Below are positions 941-30,585 of a stretch of 64,000 nt of DNA, piece after piece; the stretch's first letter is position 1; each line of letters begins with the position of its first letter. This DNA comes from Planctomycetota bacterium (GTDB lineage Bacteria > Planctomycetota > MHYJ01 > WSZJ01). The notes under the pieces were generated by a model. The model did not search any database. It was not told the origin of the DNA and saw only the letters and a program-made list of their open reading frames with translations. Position numbers and translations under genes: made by a program. The stretch spans positions 345,067 through 409,066 of the forward strand of contig JBBTCT010000022.1 of assembly GCA_038060895.1 (NCBI GenBank). Reading direction: 5' to 3'.

Positions 941-2245
941 TCAATGACGAGCCGTGCCACCTGACTCGAGCGGCGGAACCCCGAGCCGCCCGCATTCGCT
1001 GAGCATCCGGTCGTGCTGCGCGCCGCGCTGGGAGGTGTCGCCCACCTCGTCAAGGAGTCCCGCGCCTTCTCTCCAGGCGGCCTCCGCTTCCGCACGGCGG
1101 CCCTGCGGCAGAAGGAAAAGGGCGTACCCGCACAAGAACCCGCCTCGGGACCGCACGTCCCGGGCCTCGGCGAGAATCGCGAAAGCGTTCGAGAAGGCCG
1201 CTTCCGCCTCTTGCGGCCGCCCGGTTTCCGCGAACATCCGCGCACGGTTGCCCCATGCGACGCCCTCGGAACGGCGAATTCCGACCTCGCGATGGATCGC
1301 CATCGCTTCCTCGTCCAGCGGTTCCGCCTCGGCATGCCGACCGAGGGACATGAGAAGCACCGACAAGTTGCCGAGGACGATTCCTTCCGACCGCCGGTTG
1401 CCGACCTCCCTGTGAACGACGAGCGCGTCGCGGTAGAAGCGCTCCGCTTCTGCGGTGCGGCCCGTCTCGTGGCAGAGACCGCCGAGATTGCCGAGCGTCA
1501 CGCCTTCGCCGCGCCGCTCGCCGAGCTTGCGCTGCAGGGACTGCGCTTCCTCGTACGTCCGCTCGGCCTGCTCAAGCCGCCCGGTTTCCTTGTAGTGGAG
1601 CCCGAGGTTGCCCAGCAGCAGGCTGACGCCCCTTGGATCGCCCAGCTCGCGGTGGATTTCGAGCGAGCGTACGTACTCCGTTTCCGCCTGCGCTCCCCGC
1701 CCCGTCTCGAGGTACAGATTTCCCAGGTTCATCCGCACCGCACCCTCGTGCCGCAGGCTCCCCACCTTGAGGTCCTCCGCCAGCGCCTGCGTCAGCGCCT
1801 CCTCGGCCCGGGCCGAACGCCCGGTTGCCAGCAGCACCAGCCCTGCGCGCCGAAGCGATTCCGCCCGCTCGACGCCGGTCGCTGTTTCGGCGTGGGCCAG
1901 CCAGAGCCGGGCGGCGGCCTCGGTCTGGAAGCGGCGGTCCGCGAATTCCGCCGCGCGACCGAGGTAGAACCGCGCGGCCTCTGCGCCCGGCGCGCCGGAC
2001 GCTCCCTCCGCCCGCCGCGCGTGCTCCGCAAGCTCTTCGGCCCACGTGTCCGCCAGTCGCGCCGGCAAGTGAAACGCTTCTTCAAGCTCCCGCAGCGTAG
2101 CCCCCGGCGGCCTTCCGCCTCCGCGATCCTCGATCACGGAAAACGCAATCGCGTGCAGCCGCGCCCGGTCGCCGGGGAGCTGGAGCTGATACGCCGCTTC
2201 CCTGAGAAGGGCATGCCGAAACACATAAGCGATCTCTGCGTTCAC
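941..2245 (-). CDS. Stand-alone TPR protein (about 40-aa MalT/TPR_12-type repeats) starting at the STAND winged-helix motif
   Basis: GTG start inferred at 2245: VNAEIAYVFRHALLREAAYQLQLPGDRARLH; repeated 'EGxxLGNLG..Y...G...AE..Y..AL.IHRE.G' units. The upstream part of ORF 941..3280 is antisense to the next gene. Confidence 0.8.
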   Translation of the reverse strand: MNAEIAYVFRHALLREAAYQLQLPGDRARLHAIAFSVIEDRGGGRPPGATLRELEEAFHLPARLADTWAEELAEHARRAEGASGAPGAEAARFYLGRAAEFADRRFQTEAAARLWLAHAETATGVERAESLRRAGLVLLATGRSARAEEALTQALAEDLKVGSLRHEGAVRMNLGNLYLETGRGAQAETEYVRSLEIHRELGDPRGVSLLLGNLGLHYKETGRLEQAERTYEEAQSLQRKLGERRGEGVTLGNLGGLCHETGRTAEAERFYRDALVVHREVGNRRSEGIVLGNLSVLLMSLGRHAEAEPLDEEAMAIHREVGIRRSEGVAWGNRARMFAETGRPQEAEAAFSNAFAILAEARDVRSRGGFLCGYALFLLPQGRRAEAEAAWREGAGLLDEVGDTSQRGAQHDRMLSECGRLGVPPLESGGTARH

Positions 2246-2293
2246 GCGGCGATCATACGAATCCCGGCGGCCGTTTCCGGTGTATGTCATTCC

Positions 2294-3346
2294 ATGAAAA
2301 CCCTCGCGACCGTCGCTTCGCTGGCCCTCGTCATTTCCGCTGCCGCCGAGCCTCCTGCCGTCGCCCCGAAGCCAAAAGGGGACCGGGCCCTCGCGCTCAG
2401 CGTGACCATGCCCAGGGAAGGGGACTACGCGAAGGAGTTTGAGGAAGCGCAGAAGGCGGGGCTGCGGCACAACGTGCTGTCGTTCGACTGGGCGGACCTG
2501 GAGACGGCGGAGGGGGAGTACAAGCCGGCGACGAATTTCCTCGTGATTGCCAACGCGTGGTATCCGCCGCGCAAGGTCCCGGTGCACTTGATGGTGCGGC
2601 CGATTCACACGAACCAGGACGCGCGGCCGGCGTTCCGGAAGGGGAAGGCGTTCGACGACCCGGAAGTGATCGCCGCTTTCAAGCGGCTGCTCGACTGGGT
2701 TTTCGCGCAGGTCCCCGACCTCGAGGTCCCCAGCTTTTCGATCGGATCCGAGAGCGACCTCTGGCTCGAGCAGGACGACGCGCGCTGGAAGGCCTTCGGG
2801 ACGTTCCTCAAGGAGGCCGCCGCGCACGCCCGCAAGCTTCGCCCCGGCCTGAAGGTCGCGAGCGAATTTCGCCTCGCGGGCATCCGCGGCAGTCACTCCG
2901 CGCGCCTGAAGGGACTGCTTTCGAGCTGCGACGTCGCGGGCGTCTCCGACTACCCGATCGACGACCAGACGATCGCCCTCGACCCCGCCGCAGTCCGGGC
3001 GACGTTCAAGGACGCGGTCGCGTTCGCGGGGAAAAAGCCGGTGTACTTCTACCAGCTCGGTTACCCCTCCGGCGCCGGCTGCAAGAGCTCCGAGGAAAAA
3101 CAGGCGACCTTCATCCGCGAAGTTTTCGCCGCGTGGGACCAGCACGAGAAGGCCGTCGCGTTCGTGAACACCACCTGGACCACCGACATCCCCGCCGCCG
3201 CCGTCGAGGGCTACACGAAGTACTACCAGTTCGACACGCCCGCCTTCCGCGATTTCCTGGGCTCGCTCGGGCTGCGCCACGAGGACGGGAAGCCGAAGCC
3301 CGCGTGGGAAGCGCTGCGGGACGAGACGAAAAAGCGGGGCTGGTAG
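2294..3346 (+). CDS. Secreted TIM-barrel glycoside hydrolase-like protein (GH-A clan-like)
   Basis: Signal peptide MKTLATVASLALVISAAA; 'FDWADLE', 'IGSESD', 'GVSDYP', 'KPVYFYQLGYPS' and the terminal 'GL..EDGKPKPAW' are typical of GH-A-like proteins. Confidence 0.6.
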   Translation: MKTLATVASLALVISAAAEPPAVAPKPKGDRALALSVTMPREGDYAKEFEEAQKAGLRHNVLSFDWADLETAEGEYKPATNFLVIANAWYPPRKVPVHLMVRPIHTNQDARPAFRKGKAFDDPEVIAAFKRLLDWVFAQVPDLEVPSFSIGSESDLWLEQDDARWKAFGTFLKEAAAHARKLRPGLKVASEFRLAGIRGSHSARLKGLLSSCDVAGVSDYPIDDQTIALDPAAVRATFKDAVAFAGKKPVYFYQLGYPSGAGCKSSEEKQATFIREVFAAWDQHEKAVAFVNTTWTTDIPAAAVEGYTKYYQFDTPAFRDFLGSLGLRHEDGKPKPAWEALRDETKKRGW

Positions 3347-3403
3347 CGGGTGCCGCCCGCTCCCAGGAACGCCACGCCTTCTTCAGCGCCGCGATATCGA
3401 GCT

Positions 3404-4951
3404 TCACCATTCCCGCGGGTGAGGCTCCTCCGCCTCGAACGCCTCCACCCCGGCGTTCGCGCAGGCTTTTCGCATGTGGGTCATGGCTTCCTGGAGTTCC
3501 AGCGTTTCGTTGACCTCCCTCAGCAGCGCCACGCTGGAGCGCCAGAAGGCCCTCGACTCGGCGGCCTTTCCCTGGCTGAGGAGCAGGAGGGCGAAGCGCC
3601 AGCCGGTGGCTCCCTCGAGCCTGCGGTTCTGGATCGCGCGGTGATCGTCGAGCGCCCGCGCGTACATCGACGCGGCCTCCCCGCTCCTGCCGGCTCCCGC
3701 GTAGATGCCGGCGAGTTTCGCCTGCATGAGGCCGACGCTGCGCCGGTTCCCGACCTCCAGGTTCACGGCGAGGGCCTGTTCGATCAGGGATTCCGCCTCG
3801 AGCGTCCGTCCCTGCCGCAGGAGAATCTCGCCCAGGTTGCCGAGCGCGATGCCTTCGGACCGGCGATTGCCCGTCTCCCGGCTCAGCGCCATTGACTGCT
3901 CGTACAGGTCTCGCGCCTTGTCGAGCGCGCCGAGCTGCATGGCCGCGCCCCCCAGGTTGCCCAGCGCGTTGCCCTCGAACCGACGGTCCCCGACCTCGCG
4001 CTGGATCGCCAGCGCCTGCAGCAGGAATTTCTCGGCCAGCTCCGCGCGCCCCGTCACGAGGTAGACGAGCCCGAGCTTCTCCAGGGCGACGCCCTCACCC
4101 CGGCGGTTGCCGACTTCGCGCAGGACCGCCAGCGAATCCTCGTGCATGCGTTCCGCGAGCTCCATCCGGCCGGTCTCGAGGTAGATCCGGGCCGCGAGGT
4201 TGCCCAGCACGATGCCCTCGTTCCAGCGATTCCCCGACTTCCTGCAGATTCCCAGCGCCCGCTCGTAGGCCCGCTCCGCTTCTTCCATCCGCCCGCCCAG
4301 GGACAGGACGCCGGCCAGGTTACCCAGGGCCGCGCCCTCCCACGAAAGGTCGCTCGTGGGATCGAACGCCTCAAGCGCCCTCCGAAGAGTCGCTTCCGCA
4401 TCCTCGAGCCGTCCCGTGTCCTGGTACGCAAGCCCCAGCGCCACGAACGCGATCGCTTCCAGCCGCGCCATTCCCATCTCCCGGAACGCAGCCGCTGCTT
4501 CCTCGAGGAGCCGCACCGCCTCGGCGACCCGCCCCCGGGTCCACGCCGTCCACCCCGCCCGCCGCGTCGCTTCGGCCCGCTCGACGCCCCCCCGCACCCC
4601 GGCGAATTCCAGCCAGCTCTCCTGCGCGGCCTCGTACCGGAAGCGCTGCTCCGCCACCTCCGCAGCCTGGCGCAAGTACAGCGCGCGCGCCTCCCGCATC
4701 CCGGCCGCATCGCCCGCCCCCCGCGCATGGTCGGCCAGCTCCCGCGCGAACGCGTCCGAGGCATGCGGCCGCCTGCCCTTCACGTCCGCCTCCAGCGGCC
4801 CGGGGTCCGGCCGCCTCCCGCCCGCCAACGCTTCGATCGCATCGAATGCGGCCGCGTGCAGGCGCGCCCGCTCGCCGGGAAGCTGGAGCTGGTACGCGGC
4901 GTCGCGGAGCAGGGCGTGACGAAACAGGTAGACCGTTTCAGCGGAGCTCAT
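3404..4951 (-). CDS. Second stand-alone TPR protein starting at the STAND winged-helix motif
   Basis: MSSAETVYLFRHALLRDAAYQLQLPGERARLH followed by multiple 40-aa TPRs; paralog of 941..2245. An alternative in-frame ATG lies at 5002. Confidence 0.85.
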   Translation of the reverse strand: MSSAETVYLFRHALLRDAAYQLQLPGERARLHAAAFDAIEALAGGRRPDPGPLEADVKGRRPHASDAFARELADHARGAGDAAGMREARALYLRQAAEVAEQRFRYEAAQESWLEFAGVRGGVERAEATRRAGWTAWTRGRVAEAVRLLEEAAAAFREMGMARLEAIAFVALGLAYQDTGRLEDAEATLRRALEAFDPTSDLSWEGAALGNLAGVLSLGGRMEEAERAYERALGICRKSGNRWNEGIVLGNLAARIYLETGRMELAERMHEDSLAVLREVGNRRGEGVALEKLGLVYLVTGRAELAEKFLLQALAIQREVGDRRFEGNALGNLGGAAMQLGALDKARDLYEQSMALSRETGNRRSEGIALGNLGEILLRQGRTLEAESLIEQALAVNLEVGNRRSVGLMQAKLAGIYAGAGRSGEAASMYARALDDHRAIQNRRLEGATGWRFALLLLSQGKAAESRAFWRSSVALLREVNETLELQEAMTHMRKACANAGVEAFEAEEPHPREW

Positions 4952-4968
4952 GCCCGGCGCTGCCACGG

Positions 4969-4987
4969 GCGAGCGAAGCGAGTCGAA
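4969..4987. repeat. REP-like palindromic repeat family A, copy 1
   Basis: gcgagcgaagcgagtcgaa, identical to 11470-11488. Confidence 0.7.
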
Positions 4988-5219
4988 CGGCGGAAAGAAC
5001 ATGTAATCTCAGCGGTCACGCCGCCCACTCTACTCGTCGGGGACCGTCCGCGATTCCCCCTCAGAGTCCCAGCGCGAAGGCGATCGCGAAGTCCACCCGG
5101 ACGTCAGGTGGAAAGGGAAGCCCATCGGAGAGCGGGAAGCGGAGCCTGAAACTACAGCCAGAGACGGTTCGAATTGACGGTAACCGGAAATCTGAAGATT
5201 GGTCTGGTTCCTGGCTCTT

Positions 5220-6755
5220 CTATTCTCTCACCCAGCACACCCCCCAAACTTCCTCATCGACCACGAGCTCGACATTGCCGGTTTCGAGAGAGAGCACGCA
5301 GAGTCGTGCCATGCTGTTCTTGCCGTCGCGGCAGAAGAAGGCCAGAAAACGGCCATCCGGGGAGAGGGCCAGTTCGTCGAAGCGCCAGTTGTGATCGAGA
5401 AGCGTCCGGAAGCCTGTTCCATCCGAGGCGACCGAATCGACCCGCTGATGCTCTCCATCGACCCAGGTGGAGAGAAGCACGCGGTCTTCAAATTGCGACC
5501 ACGCAAGTGGCCTCGTGGACCTGACGTCCTCCAGCGTCAATGCAGTCTTGACGTCCGTTCCGTCCAGGCTGGCCACGTCGAGCGACCCGGACTCTCCGCC
5601 GGCCGGTGAGAAAGCAATCCGCTTGGAGTCAGGTGAGAGCACGGGCTGCGCTGTCGTGTCCAGCGAAGCAATCCGTCTCGGGTTCTTTCCTTCGGGATCG
5701 ACCCGAATTACTTCATAGACGAGTTCGTTCGAGGCGGAGGAGAGCCGGGTGACGAAGATCCCGGAACTGTCTGGAATCCAGATTCCGGCGCTGTCATGGA
5801 CATCGTCGTCCGCCAGCGGCGTACGCGCGCGCGGATTCGATCCGTCGGAGTTCATCAACCAGACCCGCCGCGAGACCTGCCCGGTACTGACGAAGAACAG
5901 GATCATCTGGCCATCCGGCGAGTACACCGGCGTGCTCGCGGGCCGAATTTCCGGCACGAAGGGAAGGACTTCGCCCTTGGCGACGTCCAGCCGCAGCAGG
6001 GTCCAATTGTCGAGATCAGGGGAGAAGGAGTGACCGACTGCAAAGAGACCGTTCGGCGAGAGGTTCAGGTCGGCAAGTTGCGGTCTCGAGTGTTCCACTG
6101 TCTTCCGAGCGGCAATGCGCTTGCGATCCGTGCCGTCGGGCCGGCAGGTCCAGAATTCCTCCGCTGAGTACTCCTCGCCGTCGCGACAGATGTGCCGGTA
6201 GAGGAGTCTCTCTTTCGCCACGGGACGATCGAGAAGAAGATGATCCGCCCGCTTTCCATCGAGGACGAACGAGTCGACCAGCGTCTCGATCGCCGGGCGG
6301 CTGGCGTCCCAATCGCTGTGCTTGAGAAGAAACGCCATGTCAAACGCAGCAGAATCCCCCTTGGAGAAATGCCTCACCTCGACGAGCGACTCTTCGTCCT
6401 GCTTATAAGCGACTGCAAGAAACCTCCGTCCGCCGGCGGAACCCCCCATGTGCGCGTCTCGAAGCCTTCGAGCGAATTGGCGTTTCTTGCTGGCCGCCAG
6501 GCTTTCGAACCACGCTTCCGCCCGGTCGTCCGCGCCTTCGCCGAACGGTGCCTGGAGAAGCGCACCTCTGACCTTCCGATCCTTCGAATCGAACTCGATG
6601 ATCGGCTGCCTGAACTCGGTGAACTGGAAGTCCTCCGTTCTGACGTCCCAGACTTCCGGAGCCGCTTTGAACGACAGTTTCTTGAGCTTCTCTTCGTCGC
6701 CAATAGCGGCGGAGGCGAGGCCTAGAATTCCGGCGAGGATTAGGAGCCGCTTCAT
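5220..6755 (-). CDS. Secreted TolB-like/PD40 beta-propeller protein
   Basis: Signal peptide; repeated 'P..SPDG..I.F' and 'DGT..R' blades. Confidence 0.8.
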   Translation of the reverse strand: MKRLLILAGILGLASAAIGDEEKLKKLSFKAAPEVWDVRTEDFQFTEFRQPIIEFDSKDRKVRGALLQAPFGEGADDRAEAWFESLAASKKRQFARRLRDAHMGGSAGGRRFLAVAYKQDEESLVEVRHFSKGDSAAFDMAFLLKHSDWDASRPAIETLVDSFVLDGKRADHLLLDRPVAKERLLYRHICRDGEEYSAEEFWTCRPDGTDRKRIAARKTVEHSRPQLADLNLSPNGLFAVGHSFSPDLDNWTLLRLDVAKGEVLPFVPEIRPASTPVYSPDGQMILFFVSTGQVSRRVWLMNSDGSNPRARTPLADDDVHDSAGIWIPDSSGIFVTRLSSASNELVYEVIRVDPEGKNPRRIASLDTTAQPVLSPDSKRIAFSPAGGESGSLDVASLDGTDVKTALTLEDVRSTRPLAWSQFEDRVLLSTWVDGEHQRVDSVASDGTGFRTLLDHNWRFDELALSPDGRFLAFFCRDGKNSMARLCVLSLETGNVELVVDEEVWGVCWVRE

Positions 6756-24738: not shown

Positions 24739-27420
24739 CTATTTCGGCGCGAACTTCTCGACCAGCGCCGCCCAGCGGGGATCCAGGCGAAGCGGAGCCA
24801 GCTCCGAGTCGCCGGTCCACGAGCCGTCGCGGCTGACGCCGGCCTCGAGCCCGTTCTCGAGCGTGCGGAAGGCCTCGTCGGTTTTTCGCTGGCCGGCGAG
24901 GGCTCCCGCGAGCCGCAGCGTCGTCATCTGCTGGAACAGGATTCGACTGGGCATCAGGAGCTTCCCGCCTTCGGGATCGGAGGCGTCGTCGATTCTGCGC
25001 AGAACCTCCCGGTAGCCCTTCTCGGCATCAGCCCACCGCGCTTCGTCAGAAGCAGCGAAGGCGGCGGCGAGGCTGTCGCGGATGCCAGGGGTCATCGCTG
25101 CGAACTTGCGCGTCATATCGACGCCTTGCGCCATCTCGACAAGGTTGTTGGTGCGCTCGACGGGAAGCGCCTCGAATTGCTTCCGGGCGGCGCGCCGGTG
25201 CGCCGCGAACGCGGCGTCGTCTCCCGCTGCCAGGTCGAACGCCATCGCGAGGTACCAGCCCGCGCCCATTTCGGGCTCATCCCTCAGGATCCGCTCGAGG
25301 TCGTCGCGCGATTCCTTCACCGGGCGCGGCGTCCCACCGAGCACGAGGTCCTGGTAGTCCAGCGCCGCGCGGACGAGCCTGGCCCGTGTATTCCCGGGCT
25401 CGATGACCAGCACGCGCTCGACGTCCTTCAACATGCGGCTCCGGTGACGCCCCGTGCCGACGGAGGACAGGAAGACCACCATCAGCCGCTCCAGGATGGT
25501 GCGCGGCTCGTCGGGCGCGATCGAGACCGCTTCGTCCAGGTCCTCCAGCGCTTCTTTTTCGCGACCCAGCCGCAGGCGGATCTGCGCCCGCGCCATCCAG
25601 GCTTCGCGGAAATTGGGCTCCTGCTCGACGGCGATCGAAGCGTCGCTTTCCGCGCCCGCCAGGTTACGGCGCGTGGCCGCGTCGGGGCGCTCCACGCGAT
25701 TTCCCAGGCGGTACAGGGCGCGCGCGAGGAAGGCATCCGCGAACGTCGGGTCCATCGCGAGCGCTTCGGCCAGGGCGGGAAGCGGGTCGAACCCGGGCTC
25801 GAATGCGAGGCGGACCAGGGCTTCGGCGGTCAGCATGCGCGGCCGGAGGACGCCGAGATTCCGGAGTTCCGCGATGTCGGCATCGAGGAGCCTGCGCTCC
25901 TCTGCGCAGATCATCGCGAGATCCTGTGGCAGCACCACGAAGGTTCCTTCGATCGTCCGGTCCTGAACGAACATCATGCGCAGCAGGATGCGGTCGTAAC
26001 GGGCGTCTCCCAGCGCCGGGTTCAGCTCGAGCGCGCGGTCGAGGTCGGCCATCGCCTGCGGCAGGCGGTTCAGGTCGCGCAGGACGCGCGCGCGGGCGTG
26101 AAGAGCATCCGCGTGGTCCGGGAAGATCGCGAGGGCCTTGTCGAAGTTCGCGGCGGCGCTTCGCAGGATCCCCTGCCGGAGGGGCCGGTCCTCCTTGCGG
26201 CGGATCTTCCGGGCCGCTTCGTAGTCCGCGACCCCGGCGCTGAAGTCCGGCCGGGCCGCGTTGAGAAGCTCGAGGCGGTCCTGCCGGACCCCGCGTGTTC
26301 TCAGTTGCCAGGCCAGGGTCGCGGCGAGCACGAGGGCCAATGCCCCGGTCGCCGAGAGGGCCGGCCGCCGCCGGGCCCATCGCCAGGATCGCGAGAGCAC
26401 CCCCTCCCGCCGCGCGGCGACCGGTGCGCCTTCGAGGAAGCGGTCGAGGTCCTCCGCCATCGCCGTCGCGGACGCGTAACGTTTCGACTTCTGCTTCGCC
26501 ATCGCGGTCAGGCAGATCGTCTCGAGGTCCCTGGGTACGTGCGCCACGACGCGCGAGGGGGGCGACGGCTCGCGATCCTCCACGGCGCGCAGCACCGCGG
26601 CCATCGTCTCGCCCTCGAACGGCCGCTTCTTCGTCAGCACCTCGTAGAGCACCGCTCCGAGCGAGTACACGTCGCTCTGCCCGTCCACGGACCGCATTCC
26701 CGACACCTGCTCCGGCGGCATGTAGCACGCGGTCCCCATGACCTGGTCGGTCCGCGTCAGCCCCCCGTCCTCGTCCCCCGTCTTCGCGAGGCCGAAATCG
26801 GTCAGCCGAGCCGCCCCCGCGCCGTCCACCAGGACGTTCGCGGGCTTGATGTCCCGGTGCACGATTCCCTGCGCGTGCGCGACCGCCAGCGCCCGCGCCA
26901 CGTCCCGCACCATCCGCGCCGCATCCTGCGGCGCAACTCCCGGGTCGCGAAGCTGGCGGTCCAGCGCGCGCCCTTCGACGAATTCCATCGCGATGTAGTG
27001 CGCGCTCCCCTCGGCCCCGACGTCGTACACGCGGACGATCCCGGGATGATCCAGCTTCGCCGCGGCGCGCGCTTCGCGATCAAATCGCGCCAGCGTCTCC
27101 CTCGACGCATGCTCGCCCGCGATCATCACCTTCAGCGCGACAATCCGGTCGAGCGCCGTGTCGCGCGCCCGGTAGACAATCCCCATCCCGCCCGCGCCGG
27201 CCGCGGCGAGGATGTCGTAGCGCCCGATCCGCTTCGGTTGCGCGGGGACCACTCCGGGCGCAGCCGGCGGAGGCATCACCACCGTCGGGTCCGACCCCGA
27301 AGCCGCCGGAATCGCGACCGTCAGCGCGGCTTCCTCCGGCGACTTCCCGCACGCGGGACAGCGGGCAGACTCTTGCTGTCCTTCGAAGCGGTGCCCGCAG
27401 CCGGGACAGGTGACGTTCAA
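24739..27420 (-). CDS. Hanks-type Ser/Thr kinase with N-terminal zinc ribbon, TM segment and TPRs
   Basis: CPGC/CPAC; GAGGMGIVY, VALK, HRDIKPAN, DFG, MPPEQ. Confidence 0.93.
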   Translation of the reverse strand: MNVTCPGCGHRFEGQQESARCPACGKSPEEAALTVAIPAASGSDPTVVMPPPAAPGVVPAQPKRIGRYDILAAAGAGGMGIVYRARDTALDRIVALKVMIAGEHASRETLARFDREARAAAKLDHPGIVRVYDVGAEGSAHYIAMEFVEGRALDRQLRDPGVAPQDAARMVRDVARALAVAHAQGIVHRDIKPANVLVDGAGAARLTDFGLAKTGDEDGGLTRTDQVMGTACYMPPEQVSGMRSVDGQSDVYSLGAVLYEVLTKKRPFEGETMAAVLRAVEDREPSPPSRVVAHVPRDLETICLTAMAKQKSKRYASATAMAEDLDRFLEGAPVAARREGVLSRSWRWARRRPALSATGALALVLAATLAWQLRTRGVRQDRLELLNAARPDFSAGVADYEAARKIRRKEDRPLRQGILRSAAANFDKALAIFPDHADALHARARVLRDLNRLPQAMADLDRALELNPALGDARYDRILLRMMFVQDRTIEGTFVVLPQDLAMICAEERRLLDADIAELRNLGVLRPRMLTAEALVRLAFEPGFDPLPALAEALAMDPTFADAFLARALYRLGNRVERPDAATRRNLAGAESDASIAVEQEPNFREAWMARAQIRLRLGREKEALEDLDEAVSIAPDEPRTILERLMVVFLSSVGTGRHRSRMLKDVERVLVIEPGNTRARLVRAALDYQDLVLGGTPRPVKESRDDLERILRDEPEMGAGWYLAMAFDLAAGDDAAFAAHRRAARKQFEALPVERTNNLVEMAQGVDMTRKFAAMTPGIRDSLAAAFAASDEARWADAEKGYREVLRRIDDASDPEGGKLLMPSRILFQQMTTLRLAGALAGQRKTDEAFRTLENGLEAGVSRDGSWTGDSELAPLRLDPRWAALVEKFAPK

Positions 27421-27507: not shown

Positions 27508-30500
27508 TCAGGGCTCTCGAAGCGCTCTCTCGGCATTTTCGATGTCTTCCGCCGACTCGGACTGCCGGGCGATTCTCAGCGCTTCATGGAAGTCGCCGAG
27601 CGCTTCGTCGGCCAGGCCGAGCGTCTTGCGGATGCGGCCGCGCTCCAGGAGTGCGCGAGATTCGCGCGGTCCCGCGCCGGTCGCCCGGGCCAGCGCGAGG
27701 GATTCCTCGATCGCGGCGAGCGCGCGTTGGGGTTCGCCCCGGCGACACAGGATCCGTGCGAGGTTGGCGAGCGAAGAGGAAAGCCCGCGGCATTCGCTGG
27801 TTTCGCGCCGGATCGATATGGATTCCTCGCTGTCGGCCAATGCGCCGGAAAGATCGCCGAGTTCTCCGCGCGCCCATGCCAGGTTGTTCAGCAGGGCCGC
27901 CGTCGCAGGGCGGTCGCCGGATTTGCGGGCGAGCGCCAGTCCTTCCTCGTACCACCCGAGCGACGGGCCGGTGCGCCCCCGCTGCCCCTCGAGATTCCCC
28001 AGGTTCCCCAGGCACGCCGCGACCCCCGCCTGGTCGCCGATTTCGCGCCGAAGCGCGAGCGCCTGGCGGAAAGGTCCCTCTGCCGCGTCCAGTTCGCCCC
28101 GGGCCCGGTGGATGTTCCCGACGTTGTTGAGTCCGGAGGCGATGCCGGCGCGGTCACCGGTGCGGCGGTCGATCTCCAGGGAAGCGCGATAAGCAGCGAG
28201 GGCTTCGTCCGCCCGGCCGAGGGCGCGCAGAGCGTTCCCCATGTTGTTGAACGCGGCCGCCTCGCACGCCAGGTCGGCTCCGCCCCGCGCTTCGACCAGG
28301 GCCTTACGGCATGCGTCCAGGCTTTCCCCGACGGCGCCGCGGTGCACGTGAACGTTGGAAAGCGCGACGTAGAGCGACGCCGCGAGCCGGCGGCCGGCGC
28401 GCGAGGCCGCGAATTCAGGCTCTGCCGCCAGCATCTCCTGCCCGCGACCGGTTTCGCGAAGGCTGCCTTCCCAGTCGCCCAACCGCATCAGCGCGCCGGC
28501 AAGGGCGATCTGCGCGACGACGCGCCAGCGGCCTTCCGGCGCTGCCTGCGCCAGCTGCCGCGCCCCGTCCGCCGCCTCACGGTACTGCCCCAGAGCGCCG
28601 CGGACACGCGCGGCAATGTTGAGCGCCTGCGCCCGCTGGTCCGGCGGCAGGGTCGACGGGTCACCGGCGCGCTCCGCCTCGACAAGAGCCTCCGCGGGCC
28701 TGGCGAGGGACAGCAGGGCTTCGGCCGTCGCGAGGACGGAGGCGGGGCGTGGGCCGGCGGCTCGCGTCGCTTCGCGTGCGTGGGCCAGCGCTTCGGCGGG
28801 AGCGCCATCCCCGATCGCCTCCACCGAGGCTTCCTCCCACAGCCCCGCGGCGGCCGTGGCGTCCCCCGAATTTTCGCGATGCCCGGCGGCCAGGACGCGG
28901 ATCGCGCGGCCGCCGCTTCGCGCCAGCAGGCGGTCCGCCGCCACGGCGTGGAGGCGCGCGCGGTCCTTTTTCGGGAGAAGCGAGTAAGCTGCGTCCCGGA
29001 GGAGCGCGTGGCGGAAGAGGTACTGGGCTTCGCCCGGGAGGAGGGAGTGCCTCTGGGCGCCGATCATGTCCCGGCGCGAGGCTTCGCGGATTGAGCCAGC
29101 GGGGTCCCTCGCGAGAAGTTCGCCGAGCAGCCCCGGCCAGAAGGCGCGACCGAGCACGCTCGCCGCCTTCATCGCTTCACGCGACTCCGCCGGCATTGCA
29201 TCCAGCCGTGCCACGAGAAGTCCGCGGAGGCCGGCCGGGATCTTCCCGGCCGGGCCGGAGAGGTCCAGCGGCACTCCCGCGACGAGGCGTTCGTCCTTGA
29301 GAAATCGGGCGAGTTCTTCGACGTAGAAGGGGTTGCCGCCGGATTGCGCGACGAGGAAATCGCGCAGCGCGGGGGAGAGCGGGGCGCCGAGGGTGTTTGC
29401 GGCGAGGCGGAGGGCGGCTTCGGGGACGAGGTCGGCGAGGTCGAGGCGTTCGAAACCGGCGGGAAGGCGGGCGCCCGGGCGGGCCGTGGCGACGACCATG
29501 AAGGGGCTGCCGGAAGCGGCGCGGGGAAGAGATTCCAGGAGGGCGAGGGCGGCGTCGTCGGCCCACTGGAGATCTTCGAGGCAGAGAAGCGCAGGCCCGC
29601 GCGAGGTCGCCCAAACGGCCCAGGCGTGGTGGGTTTCGTCGATGAGGCGCGCCGGGTCGATCGCGCGCACTCGTGCGTCGGGAACGGCCACGCCGATCGA
29701 AAGCGAGATCAGGTGGGCGAAGTTCTCGCGATCGACCGGGTCGGGCACGGCGTCCGCCATGGATTCGGCAAGCGCCAGGACGATCGGCCCCGTGGTCTCT
29801 GCGCGGGCCATTTCCGCGAAGGGCGCCATCGGCAACCGCGCTTCTTCAAGCGCCCTGCCCGTCGCGACGCGGGCGCCGCCCTGCCGGCGAATTGCGACCC
29901 GGAAGTCGGCGACGAGCCGCGTCTTGCCGACTCCCGCTTCACCCACGACCACGACGAACGCGCCCCTGCCCGACTCCCACGCGGCTTGAAGCCGCGCGCG
30001 CTCGATGTCCCTTCCCACCAGCGGCGTCTCGCGCCCCGGGCCGTGCCGGATCGACGTTTCACCCCCCAGGGGGCCCTCGGCTGCAAACGCCCGGACTTGC
30101 TCTTCGCGGCCTTTGACCCGCATGGGCTCGAGCGACCGGAAGCGAATGACGCGGTGCGTCAATCGCTCGACCGCCGCCTCGACGAGCACTTCCCCCGCCG
30201 CGGCGGCTTCCTCGAGTCTCCGCGCGACGTTCACGACGTCACCCATCGCCGTGGGAGGCTCGCCGGCGACCTGGCCCCACAGAATCTCTCCGAAGTTCAC
30301 ACCGATGCGAAGCGGCGTCGCGCCGGATTCTTCCCGCATCGCGAGGGCGGCGCGAACGGCGCGAAGCGCGTCGTCCTCGTGCGCGACGGGCGCGCCAAAA
30401 ACGGCCATGACCGTCTCGCCGATGAACTTGTCAATCGTCCCGCCGCGGGACTCCACAGCGCCGCGGAGGCGGGTGTAAGCGGCGTCGAGCCAGTCGCGCA

Positions 30501-30585
30501 ACTCGGCAGGCGGGAGTTGCGGGACGTCGCACAGGCCGGCGAACAGGATTGCCACGGCCCGTCGCTCGCTGGGAACTCTGCTCAC
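27508..30585 (-). CDS. Class III cyclase-like domain + STAND (AAA_16) NTPase + TPR protein
   Basis: DKFIG..VMAVFGAP.AHEDD, GDVVNVARRL; Walker A GEAGVGKT, Walker B EDLQWAD, GNPFY, YLFRHALLRDAAY, then TPRs. Confidence 0.92.
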   Translation of the reverse strand: MSRVPSERRAVAILFAGLCDVPQLPPAELRDWLDAAYTRLRGAVESRGGTIDKFIGETVMAVFGAPVAHEDDALRAVRAALAMREESGATPLRIGVNFGEILWGQVAGEPPTAMGDVVNVARRLEEAAAAGEVLVEAAVERLTHRVIRFRSLEPMRVKGREEQVRAFAAEGPLGGETSIRHGPGRETPLVGRDIERARLQAAWESGRGAFVVVVGEAGVGKTRLVADFRVAIRRQGGARVATGRALEEARLPMAPFAEMARAETTGPIVLALAESMADAVPDPVDRENFAHLISLSIGVAVPDARVRAIDPARLIDETHHAWAVWATSRGPALLCLEDLQWADDAALALLESLPRAASGSPFMVVATARPGARLPAGFERLDLADLVPEAALRLAANTLGAPLSPALRDFLVAQSGGNPFYVEELARFLKDERLVAGVPLDLSGPAGKIPAGLRGLLVARLDAMPAESREAMKAASVLGRAFWPGLLGELLARDPAGSIREASRRDMIGAQRHSLLPGEAQYLFRHALLRDAAYSLLPKKDRARLHAVAADRLLARSGGRAIRVLAAGHRENSGDATAAAGLWEEASVEAIGDGAPAEALAHAREATRAAGPRPASVLATAEALLSLARPAEALVEAERAGDPSTLPPDQRAQALNIAARVRGALGQYREAADGARQLAQAAPEGRWRVVAQIALAGALMRLGDWEGSLRETGRGQEMLAAEPEFAASRAGRRLAASLYVALSNVHVHRGAVGESLDACRKALVEARGGADLACEAAAFNNMGNALRALGRADEALAAYRASLEIDRRTGDRAGIASGLNNVGNIHRARGELDAAEGPFRQALALRREIGDQAGVAACLGNLGNLEGQRGRTGPSLGWYEEGLALARKSGDRPATAALLNNLAWARGELGDLSGALADSEESISIRRETSECRGLSSSLANLARILCRRGEPQRALAAIEESLALARATGAGPRESRALLERGRIRKTLGLADEALGDFHEALRIARQSESAEDIENAERALREP

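Follow-up and report, generated by a model that had tools for sequence, protein, structure and literature searches.

Plants, animals, fungi, and bacteria all have STAND/NLR proteins as their central intracellular pattern receptors. In the familiar examples, sensor and switch reside on one chain, so that each new specificity requires a whole new receptor. A 64,000-nucleotide stretch of DNA from a Planctomycetota bacterium (the window; positions 345067–409066 of contig C22 in genome G000) raises the question of whether this must be so, as two TPR genes within it begin at a motif that lies inside the winged-helix domain of full-length STAND proteins. What could a gene encode that starts there? 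The answer favoured here, with a probability of roughly 0.7 based on sequence comparison and structural modelling, is that the two genes, members of a family of short genes termed S, are sensor halves of a naturally split STAND (NLR-like) ATPase, in which one core would be served by many interchangeable sensors. The first-pass annotation of the window had already proposed that such sensor halves complete an NTPase core in trans, and this is now supported by the end point of a core gene, phyletic distribution, fused relatives, selection, and a predicted interface. The features concerned are as follows.

941..2245, minus strand: S-family gene 1, 434 aa, GTG start at 2245, 168 bits against the S N-terminal profile
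2153..2245, minus strand: putative docking peptide of gene 1, VNAEIA followed by YVFRHALLREAAYQLQLPGDRARLH, with the motif Y at residue 7
2252..2257, minus strand: -10-like hexamer TATGAT, 6 nt upstream of the gene 1 GTG
3404..4951, minus strand: S-family gene 2, 515 aa, ATG start at 4951, about 8–9 forty-residue TPR units
4856..4951, minus strand: putative docking peptide of gene 2, MSSAETV followed by YLFRHALLRDAAYQLQLPGERARLH, with the motif Y at residue 8
27508..30585, minus strand: full-length (F-type) STAND, comparator only, 1025 aa, with a single Guanylate_cyc domain, AAA_16, and TPR

The short TPR genes and their N-terminal motif

Read from the GTG at 2245 and the ATG at 4951, the two proteins start with VNAEIAYVFRHALLREAAYQLQLPGDRARLH and MSSAETVYLFRHALLRDAAYQLQLPGERARLH, which bears out the annotated position of both starts, 6–7 residues before Y(V/L)FRHALLR. 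They share one architecture: the last winged-helix strand and last helix, followed by an arm and then by TPR repeats. A Pfam scan of both returned TPR families only (TPR_12, TPR_10, and TPR_MalT in gene 1), with TPR_12 at 109 and 203 bits in the window genes against a cut-off of 30.1, and with no P-loop NTPase domain in either; the winged-helix-to-TPR part of the NCBIfam model TOMM_kin_cyc aligns with residues 5–126 of gene 1 and 5–234 of gene 2. In the F-type STAND the motif is internal, as had been reported (YLFRHALLRDAAYSLLPKKDRARLH, residues 522–546, window 28948..29022). The neighbour of gene 1 is a divergent plus-strand gene with its ATG at 2294, gene 2 is preceded by a PD40/TolB-like gene (5220..6755), and no NTPase remnant was found upstream of either S gene.

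The S genes form a large family in this genome (assembly of 5.42 Mb, 47 contigs, 65.8% GC). A six-frame scan of the whole genome for the motif gave 65 matches, 57 of a short type (...AAYQLQLPGDRARLH) and eight internal to long STANDs, in which it reads ...AAYSLLxKKDRARLH. A profile built from the first 135 residues of the S proteins (alignment A1) matched 53 open reading frames (ORFs) at 150–189 bits, of which one is truncated and 52 extend for at least 429 residues beyond the point where the match begins, as well as 6–7 fragments or diverged copies at 26–105 bits; full-length STANDs reached at most 39 bits. The 52 copies with intact frames encode about 430–590 aa and often stand in tandem clusters. 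Each protein carries 7–10 forty-residue TPR units preceded by arm-like helices, and within the unit the framework positions are conserved and positions 4, 7, 8, 14, 16–18, 22, and 28–31 are variable.

Codon comparison indicates that the N-terminal motif is under strong purifying selection, acting on the peptide and not on the DNA. Over the 25 motif codons in 1326 pairs of the 52 copies, pS is 0.56 and pN 0.06, giving a dN/dS of about 0.06 at a dS of about 1, so that synonymous sites are near saturation; third-position identity is 0.56, and that of positions 1 and 2 is 0.93. Among the copies in the window, gene 1 and gene 2 differ at nine synonymous and three non-synonymous codons, the F-type STAND and gene 1 at 14 and seven, and the F-type STAND and gene 2 at 11 and six. 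Mean column identity is 0.85 and 0.78 in S residues 1–40 and about 0.5 in the TPRs, and eight positions (F10, R11, H12, R16, A19, Y20, P25, and H32) do not vary among the 97 family members aligned. Both the conservation of peptide over DNA and the divergence of the downstream TPRs had been read correctly from the window's three copies by the first-pass annotation. A conserved upstream DNA element or recombination site at the S genes was also considered and was rejected: the DNA 30–90 nt upstream of the starts is only 27% identical among copies and thus unrelated, with the exception of a -10 box and two small subgroup motifs.

The starts themselves are not scattered. In 47 of the 57 short-type copies, ATG, GTG, or TTG stands at codon -8 or -9 before the F of the motif (46 identified by script, one by eye), three more have ATC or CTG there, and in 17 S copies an in-frame stop lies no more than 13 codons upstream of this F. 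All 120 listed metagenome homologs (proteins of 283–902 aa were searched) carry the motif, and in independent gene calls of these homologs the F has index 8 in 64, 9 in 15, and 10–11 in 12; the remainder have longer predicted N-termini, often with V or M at the family position. In a second bacterial family (f66), the start codon has this same position in 35 of 46 S copies. If gene 2 began at an alternative ATG, at 5002, it would be longer by 17 residues translated from a dispersed repeat; the ATG at 4951 fits the family.

A hexamer of the form TANNNT, the -10 box, precedes 24 of 52 S starts at a spacer of 6–9 nt (6 nt in 16, 7 in five, 8 in one, and 9 in two), and the 36 other offsets examined gave two matches in all; 23 of the f66 copies have it as well. 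In gene 1 the start region reads TATGAT-CGCCGC-GTG, and gene 2 has no such box before its start. Leaderless mRNA is recognised by a -10 box immediately ahead of the start codon, and this position suggests that the S genes so equipped are transcribed without a leader. Four S genes that lack the adjacent box (C5:111865, C5:117393, C24:139948, and C35:63210) share a CT-rich upstream repeat, …CTACTCAACCCTCAA(A/T)ACTC(A/C)A(C/T)ACTC…CCGATGAA, which may be a different promoter or leader.

Metatranscriptome contigs from two libraries of one sample (X10 and X14) are identical to window positions 1835–2056, 3777–3947, and 4134–4261, within both S genes, and a contig of the same libraries matches the plus-strand gene at 2551–2859. 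These contigs are a weak hint of expression, as DNA carry-over is possible and start, strand, and level are not readable from them.

The foregoing bears on one reading of the family, namely that it consists of silent cassettes or of gene debris, either truncated pseudogenes or donors that recombine into a full-length gene at the motif. Tandem clusters and the few weak or short ORFs, truncated or disrupted, would fit such an origin. It is nevertheless very improbable in view of the 52 intact frames, of copies that own start codons and -10 boxes, of starts conserved across two bacterial families, of motif DNA conserved no further than the peptide demands, and of the RNA-library contigs, weak as that hint is. 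Moreover, no full-length acceptor with the S-type motif was found in these genomes, and no protein of 903–2575 aa matched the N-terminal 135 residues of S at E ≤ 0.001, the latter being weak evidence.

Two further observations concern the S genes. About half of the S proteins end in a tail motif, roughly M(R/H)xAC(A)xAG(V/I)xPF(D/E) (for example window 3404–3520 in gene 2); as a loose pattern it occurs in 28 of 52 copies in G000, 48 of 120 metagenome homologs, and none of 134 unsplit relatives with two cyclase domains, and it may represent a second conserved contact site. The repeat upstream of gene 2 (window about 4955–5010) is a dispersed, REP-like element, CCCTTCGACTCGCT(T/C)CGCTCGCTCAGGGC(G/A)GAGCC, found genome-wide in G000, where 103 occurrences of its 10-mer TTCGACTCGC were counted over the two strands and about 12 would be expected. 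Some copies stand in tandem, such as the three 24-bp units that precede the S gene at C16:88303, and some directly follow tRNA-like 3' ends. The repeat explains the in-frame 'FDSLRS' extension that gene 2 would acquire from the ATG at 5002.

The complementary core and its fused relatives

If the S proteins lack everything before the last winged-helix strand, the missing part might be encoded elsewhere, and the first-pass annotation had accordingly advised a search for STAND genes that end just before the motif. All ORFs of G000 were searched with a NOD profile built from 13 long STANDs, and such a gene was found outside the window, on contig C15, as an ORF of 830 aa at 120280–117788 (minus strand; the gene, of about 800 aa, lies at G000:C15:117791–120265). 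It is a single-copy gene in G000. The ORF covers profile positions 1–341 of 375 and stops nine residues later (...LLLESQREGVLIPADGPQTAAAKS*), and S proteins align to the same profile from about position 336; the two boundaries are complementary, without overlap or gap, and the junction can be read in a fused protein of genome G069. All 23 core orthologs read end at ...EGVL(I/V)(P/A)A plus 6–14 variable, often acidic residues. The core comprises two Guanylate_cyc stretches and AAA_16, with a Walker A motif, GEPGLGKT, that is invariant across orthologs. It scores 118 bits against the NOD profile, compared with 360–543 for ordinary long STANDs, which marks it as a separate lineage of long standing, not a pseudogene of recent origin. 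The core gene has a normal Shine-Dalgarno sequence (GGGAGAGGAAAATCGATG) and the S genes have the -10 box, so that the organism appears to use both initiation modes.

The position of the cut can be understood from PH0952, as described in PMC6468293. There the winged helix ends with an S7-S8 beta-hairpin (the 'wing'), H382 after the wing bonds the ADP phosphates, helix H12 follows with its N-terminus touching the P-loop, and the arm and the TPR sensor come next and clamp the NBD. The claim that the motif's His is the nucleotide-contacting residue, given as established in the first-pass annotation, holds for this protein. The core carries the winged helix as far as its first wing strand (...EGVLIPA) but no His motif, and all that the S proteins retain of this domain is its final strand, the His, and the final helix, so that a winged helix with its His exists only in the core-S pair. 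In alignment with the long STANDs of G000 (...SLLPGEAQYLFRHALLRD...), S proteins begin in the hairpin turn (MNAExAYLFRH...) and keep S8, His, H12, arm, and sensor.

Both halves were then followed across a sample of 401 genomes of the phylum, with S presence set at E ≤ 1e-15. S was present in 21, four in the window's family and 17 in f66, and a truncated core ortholog was present in 20 of these 21 and in none of the 380 S-less genomes. Core orthologs occur in seven of the eight genomes of the genus at 72–86% identity and in all 17 S-bearing f66 genomes at 58–67%; two further S-bearing genomes were tested, of which one has the core, which brings the tally to 25 genomes with the core among the 27 S-bearing ones tested. 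Within the order to which f66 belongs, 20 of 23 f66 genomes and neither of two sister-family genomes have S. A core ortholog is likewise missing from the three f66 genomes without S (76–88% complete), two of which share a genus with four genomes that have both S and core. The halves thus co-occur across genomes.

Copy numbers and sequences of the S genes change quickly. There are 18–89 profile matches per genome in the genus and 21–45 in four nearly closed f66 genomes. In the seven other species, matches to gene 2 do not exceed 49% and those to gene 1 do not exceed 48%, and paralogs within the genome are as close to the window genes as their best cross-species matches. Such turnover, while cores stay at 72–86% identity in the genus, looks like the evolution expected of sensors and favours the split-receptor reading. 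Many S-like genes of f66 (for example L097–L108) match the profile only over its first 41 or so positions, corresponding to the putative docking peptide; in arm and solenoid these proteins (365–660 aa) have diverged strongly, and the peptide behaves as a portable module.

Two S-less genomes of the phylum sample have more distant and longer homologs of the core. One is the 1110-aa ORF of G069 (L065), which is 41% identical to the core and continues unbroken through the junction (...ERVILPEAMRGAAGAEAAYLFRHALMRDAAYHLHLPSARACLH..., ...GERERVILPEAMRGAAGAEAAYLFRHALMRDAAYHLHLPSARACLHRRAAEVIEGL..., then TPRs); the single S-profile match of that genome lies inside this fused gene. The core was also searched against 1.84 billion cluster representatives in a full scan. 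Among the best 150 matches, the top one is a split form (P0121, 802 aa, 69% identity) ending ...EGVLIPADQAPGTAEKK; 134 of the other 149 exceed 1100 aa, the long proteins are all below 42% identity, and the winged-helix motif is present by pattern in 125 of the 150. The nearest long relatives carry the S-type motif internally, for example GGEAAYLFRHALMQKAAYHLQPPSLRACVH. A fused homolog (Rosetta stone) therefore exists for core and S, and these fused relatives indicate that the two are halves of one member of a large family with two cyclase domains, a STAND module, and TPRs. A second, independent split was considered for P0154 (794 aa) and P0253 (803 aa), which end near the same wing site; both were treated as fragments because the near-identical fragment P0271 reads through, and only three short proteins, one labelled partial, match the sensor half of that subfamily.

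A FastTree tree of the 135-residue N-modules, which has weak support and served neither for rooting nor for deciding between an ancestral and a re-fused G069, places 96 of 99 S copies in one group made up mostly of family-specific expansions, with weak deep support within it. The group stands apart from the fused two-cyclase clade (support 0.96) and from F types (support 1.0). By these criteria the F-type STAND of the window belongs to a different clade and is neither the parent nor a likely partner of the S genes; here the first-pass annotation, which had taken it as the relevant relative, was mistaken, and the likely partner is the core on C15.

This result also bears on the suggestion, made in the same annotation, that the S proteins are decoys or dominant negatives which invade full-length STANDs such as the window's F type and displace their own wing strand, helix, and arm. 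Targets would be plentiful, with at least 28 AAA_16 STAND matches over the Pfam cut-off in the genome, and F types do have the FRHALLRDAAY core of the motif. The suggestion is nonetheless improbable: F types own the strand, His, and helix, form a separate clade, and score at most 39 bits on the S profile (S genes, 150–189), and S tracks the split core one-to-one, whereas 380 of the 401 sampled genomes, among which F types are assumed to be spread, have no S match at the threshold used.

Around the core, an ECF sigma factor gene starts 68 nt after the stop codon, and the divergent neighbour on C15 encodes a fusion of a Ser/Thr kinase with a cNMP-binding domain (L033:7365–8747, plus strand). This kinase adjoins the core in four of seven genus loci and is absent from the 1.5-kb flanks of all 16 f66 loci examined; in the window's genus it might read what the core produces, and as a conserved neighbour of the core it was rejected, being present at only 4 of 23 core loci, all in that genus. 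Other unusual STANDs occur in G000. A 519-aa ORF (G000:C20:50409–51968, plus strand; L034:1910–3469) has a NOD with the complete winged-helix motif LLFRHDLLREAAES and ends 27 residues after it with no arm or TPR sensor, representing another kind of sensor-less STAND. A 2247-aa ORF on C12 contains two complete NOD modules in tandem, each matching NOD profile positions 1–375, with AAA_16 at C12:97722–98261 and C12:100515–101078. In the window, an 893-aa ORF (24739–27420, minus strand) lies 88 nt downstream of the F-type STAND on the same strand and, by eye, combines an N-terminal Ser/Thr kinase-like sequence with a long helical-repeat C-terminus.

Predicted interface and proposed mechanism

The first-pass annotation had called for modelling the TPR proteins with an NTPase core. 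The NOD of the C15 core (last 405 residues, 22-ortholog alignment A3) was predicted in complex with residues 1–140 of gene 2 (alignment A2) and scored 0.67, with 0.01 for the best of three controls and the verdict 'supports binding'; the score mark is reached by 58 of 80 solved complexes and by 2 of 110 mismatched pairs. Contact agreement among the runs was at least 78%, and the pLDDT of the partner at least 79. Confident contacts fall on core residues 331–340, 350–372 (350–368 reading VKHASILGVRF...), 383, and 390–396 (GVLIPAD), plus residue 277 of the conserved GNPF motif, and on S residues 3–23, 28–42, and 75. The pairs of lowest error join core 391–394 (VLIP) and F360 to Y8 and F10 of S, and core 350–355 to S residues 16, 19, 20, 31, and 32. 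The model pairs the last strand of the core with S residues 7–10, and the predicted interface is thus the expected one, a hairpin formed in trans that completes the winged helix.

A history and a mechanism can be proposed on this basis. The ancestor would have been a single chain with the order two nucleotide cyclase domains, NBD, HD, winged helix, arm, and TPR, and gene fission would have cut it at the tip of the winged-helix beta-hairpin. The N-terminal half, or core, would have retained both cyclase domains and the NTPase up to the first wing strand; the C-terminal half, S, would begin at the second wing strand (AYLF), continue with the nucleotide-contacting His, the last winged-helix helix, the arm, and the TPR solenoid, and have multiplied to about 20–90 genes per genome. 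An S protein would bind the core physically, docking by its N-terminal peptide of about 30 residues, and would thereby complete the winged helix and supply the His and the arm that hold a STAND closed and ADP-bound. As the core lacks the His, helix, arm, and sensor and every S protein carries them, the simplest model is that the resting receptor is a heterodimer of the core with any one S. A ligand on a given solenoid would release this nucleotide-dependent lock, and the released core would exchange nucleotide, oligomerise, and make cyclic nucleotide, so that many alternative sensors would have one output enzyme in common.

The gene 2 protein was also modelled alone. AlphaFold2 predicts an all-alpha solenoid with a pLDDT of 93.7 and a pTM of 0.89, in which the first 20 residues are the least confident (pLDDT 76–78), and a Foldseek search with the S model placed generic peptide-binding TPR solenoids (LGN/Pins and OGT) on top, with no STAND chain among the listed matches. 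Could the S proteins, then, be independent TPR adaptors or regulators, with the winged-helix remnant serving as a solenoid cap or binding some other shared partner, and with co-occurrence explained by ancestry or co-transfer? A monomer that folds confidently alone with its N-terminal segment modelled as a helix, nearest solved folds of the LGN/Pins type, and the lack of operon linkage with the core would agree with this, and the C-terminal tail motif, present in about half of the copies and absent from fused relatives, could mark another partner. The idea is unlikely all the same, as it leaves unexplained why the piece missing from a conserved core is precisely the one found in S, why the former winged-helix strand, His, and helix are the most conserved part of more than 50 diverging paralogs, and why, within one genus, the genomes without S are also without the core; the low confidence of the first 20 residues in the monomer also speaks against it.

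The split-receptor reading has weaknesses of its own. The co-occurrence rests on two families of related genomes and thus represents few independent events, and the core was not found in two S-bearing genomes, G006 (85% complete) and G419 (80% complete, 410 contigs); all genomes of the window's own genus are incomplete metagenome-assembled genomes, G000 itself being 86.5% complete. No S start was found in the 1.5–3 kb flanks of 27 core loci, and in G000 the S start nearest to the core is about 2.9 kb away with the kinase gene in between. The -10 box was seen at only about half of the S genes. As for the complex, intact STANDs have been solved (e.g. PH0952), and the pass may therefore reflect likeness to known structures, and in the nucleotide-free model S makes no confident contact with the P-loop.

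Known receptor systems and significance

The closest architectural parallel is offered by TPR-sensor STANDs of the MalT/PH0952 type (PDB 6MFV; PMC6468293, PMC4381067), which have the same order of NBD, HD, winged helix, arm, and TPR sensor, a winged-helix His after the S7-S8 wing that contacts ADP, and an arm and sensor that clamp the resting NBD. They are, however, single polypeptides with one sensor each, whereas in the present case the break falls within the winged-helix wing, 20–90 gene copies encode the sensor half, and the effector consists of tandem nucleotide cyclase domains. Closer in sequence are the unsplit proteins of 1100–1500 aa with two cyclase domains (P0122–P0131 and the G069 ORF), which are 35–41% identical over the whole core and whose junction contains the S-type motif xAExAYLFRHxLM..AAYHLQ(L/P)P...LH; unlike core and S, they are one polypeptide and lack the C-terminal tail motif (0/134).

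In the plant NRC sensor/helper NLR network, many diversifying sensors converge on few signalling units, and the partners are complete NLRs with their own NTPase. The convergence of many sensors on few signalling units is shared with the arrangement proposed here, in which, by contrast, sensors without an NTPase would complete the winged helix of the core. Avs and bacterial NACHT proteins (PMC13581612) are likewise STAND NTPases with protein-recognising repeat sensors and fast sensor evolution, and are described as single-chain proteins. PADLOC matched no Avs or NACHT model to the core or to S; its matches were a generic TPR model in the case of S and, in that of the core, PycC cyclase models. 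The latter (best E = 2.5e-17) reflect generic family homology with Pycsar, to which the cNMP-binding kinase beside the core in four genus loci is a second likeness, one that does not extend to most core loci overall. Pycsar cyclases are not known to be fused to STANDs, whereas the core cyclase is fused to a STAND NOD, and the defining pair of a stand-alone PycC and an adjacent cNMP-binding effector was not found. No published description of such a STAND split was found in the literature searched, and a mention in supplementary files is possible.

By analogy, the copy number of S, its species-specific repertoires, and its invariant docking peptides resemble families of immune receptors. It is conceivable, although this is held more tentatively than the split itself, that the system is a combinatorial, innate-immunity-like one, in which 20–90 fast-diversifying, species-specific TPR sensors compete for one cyclase-NTPase core by way of the docking peptide. 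That peptide would donate the missing strand and the His, and a ligand, for example a phage protein or other non-self protein, would cause the core to make cyclic nucleotide.

For Planctomycetota, these genes add a large set of apparently leaderless genes, and they illustrate cleanly a gene fission after which one half alone expanded into a family. If the split-receptor reading is true, the cut through the winged helix would show that an NLR switch can be assembled in trans. It would also make the locking of the NTPase by sensor, arm, and His easy to approach by experiment, and it would suggest a design principle for modular biosensors. With the sensor half existing as a large family of fast turnover, the evolution of sensors would be separated from that of the signalling engine.

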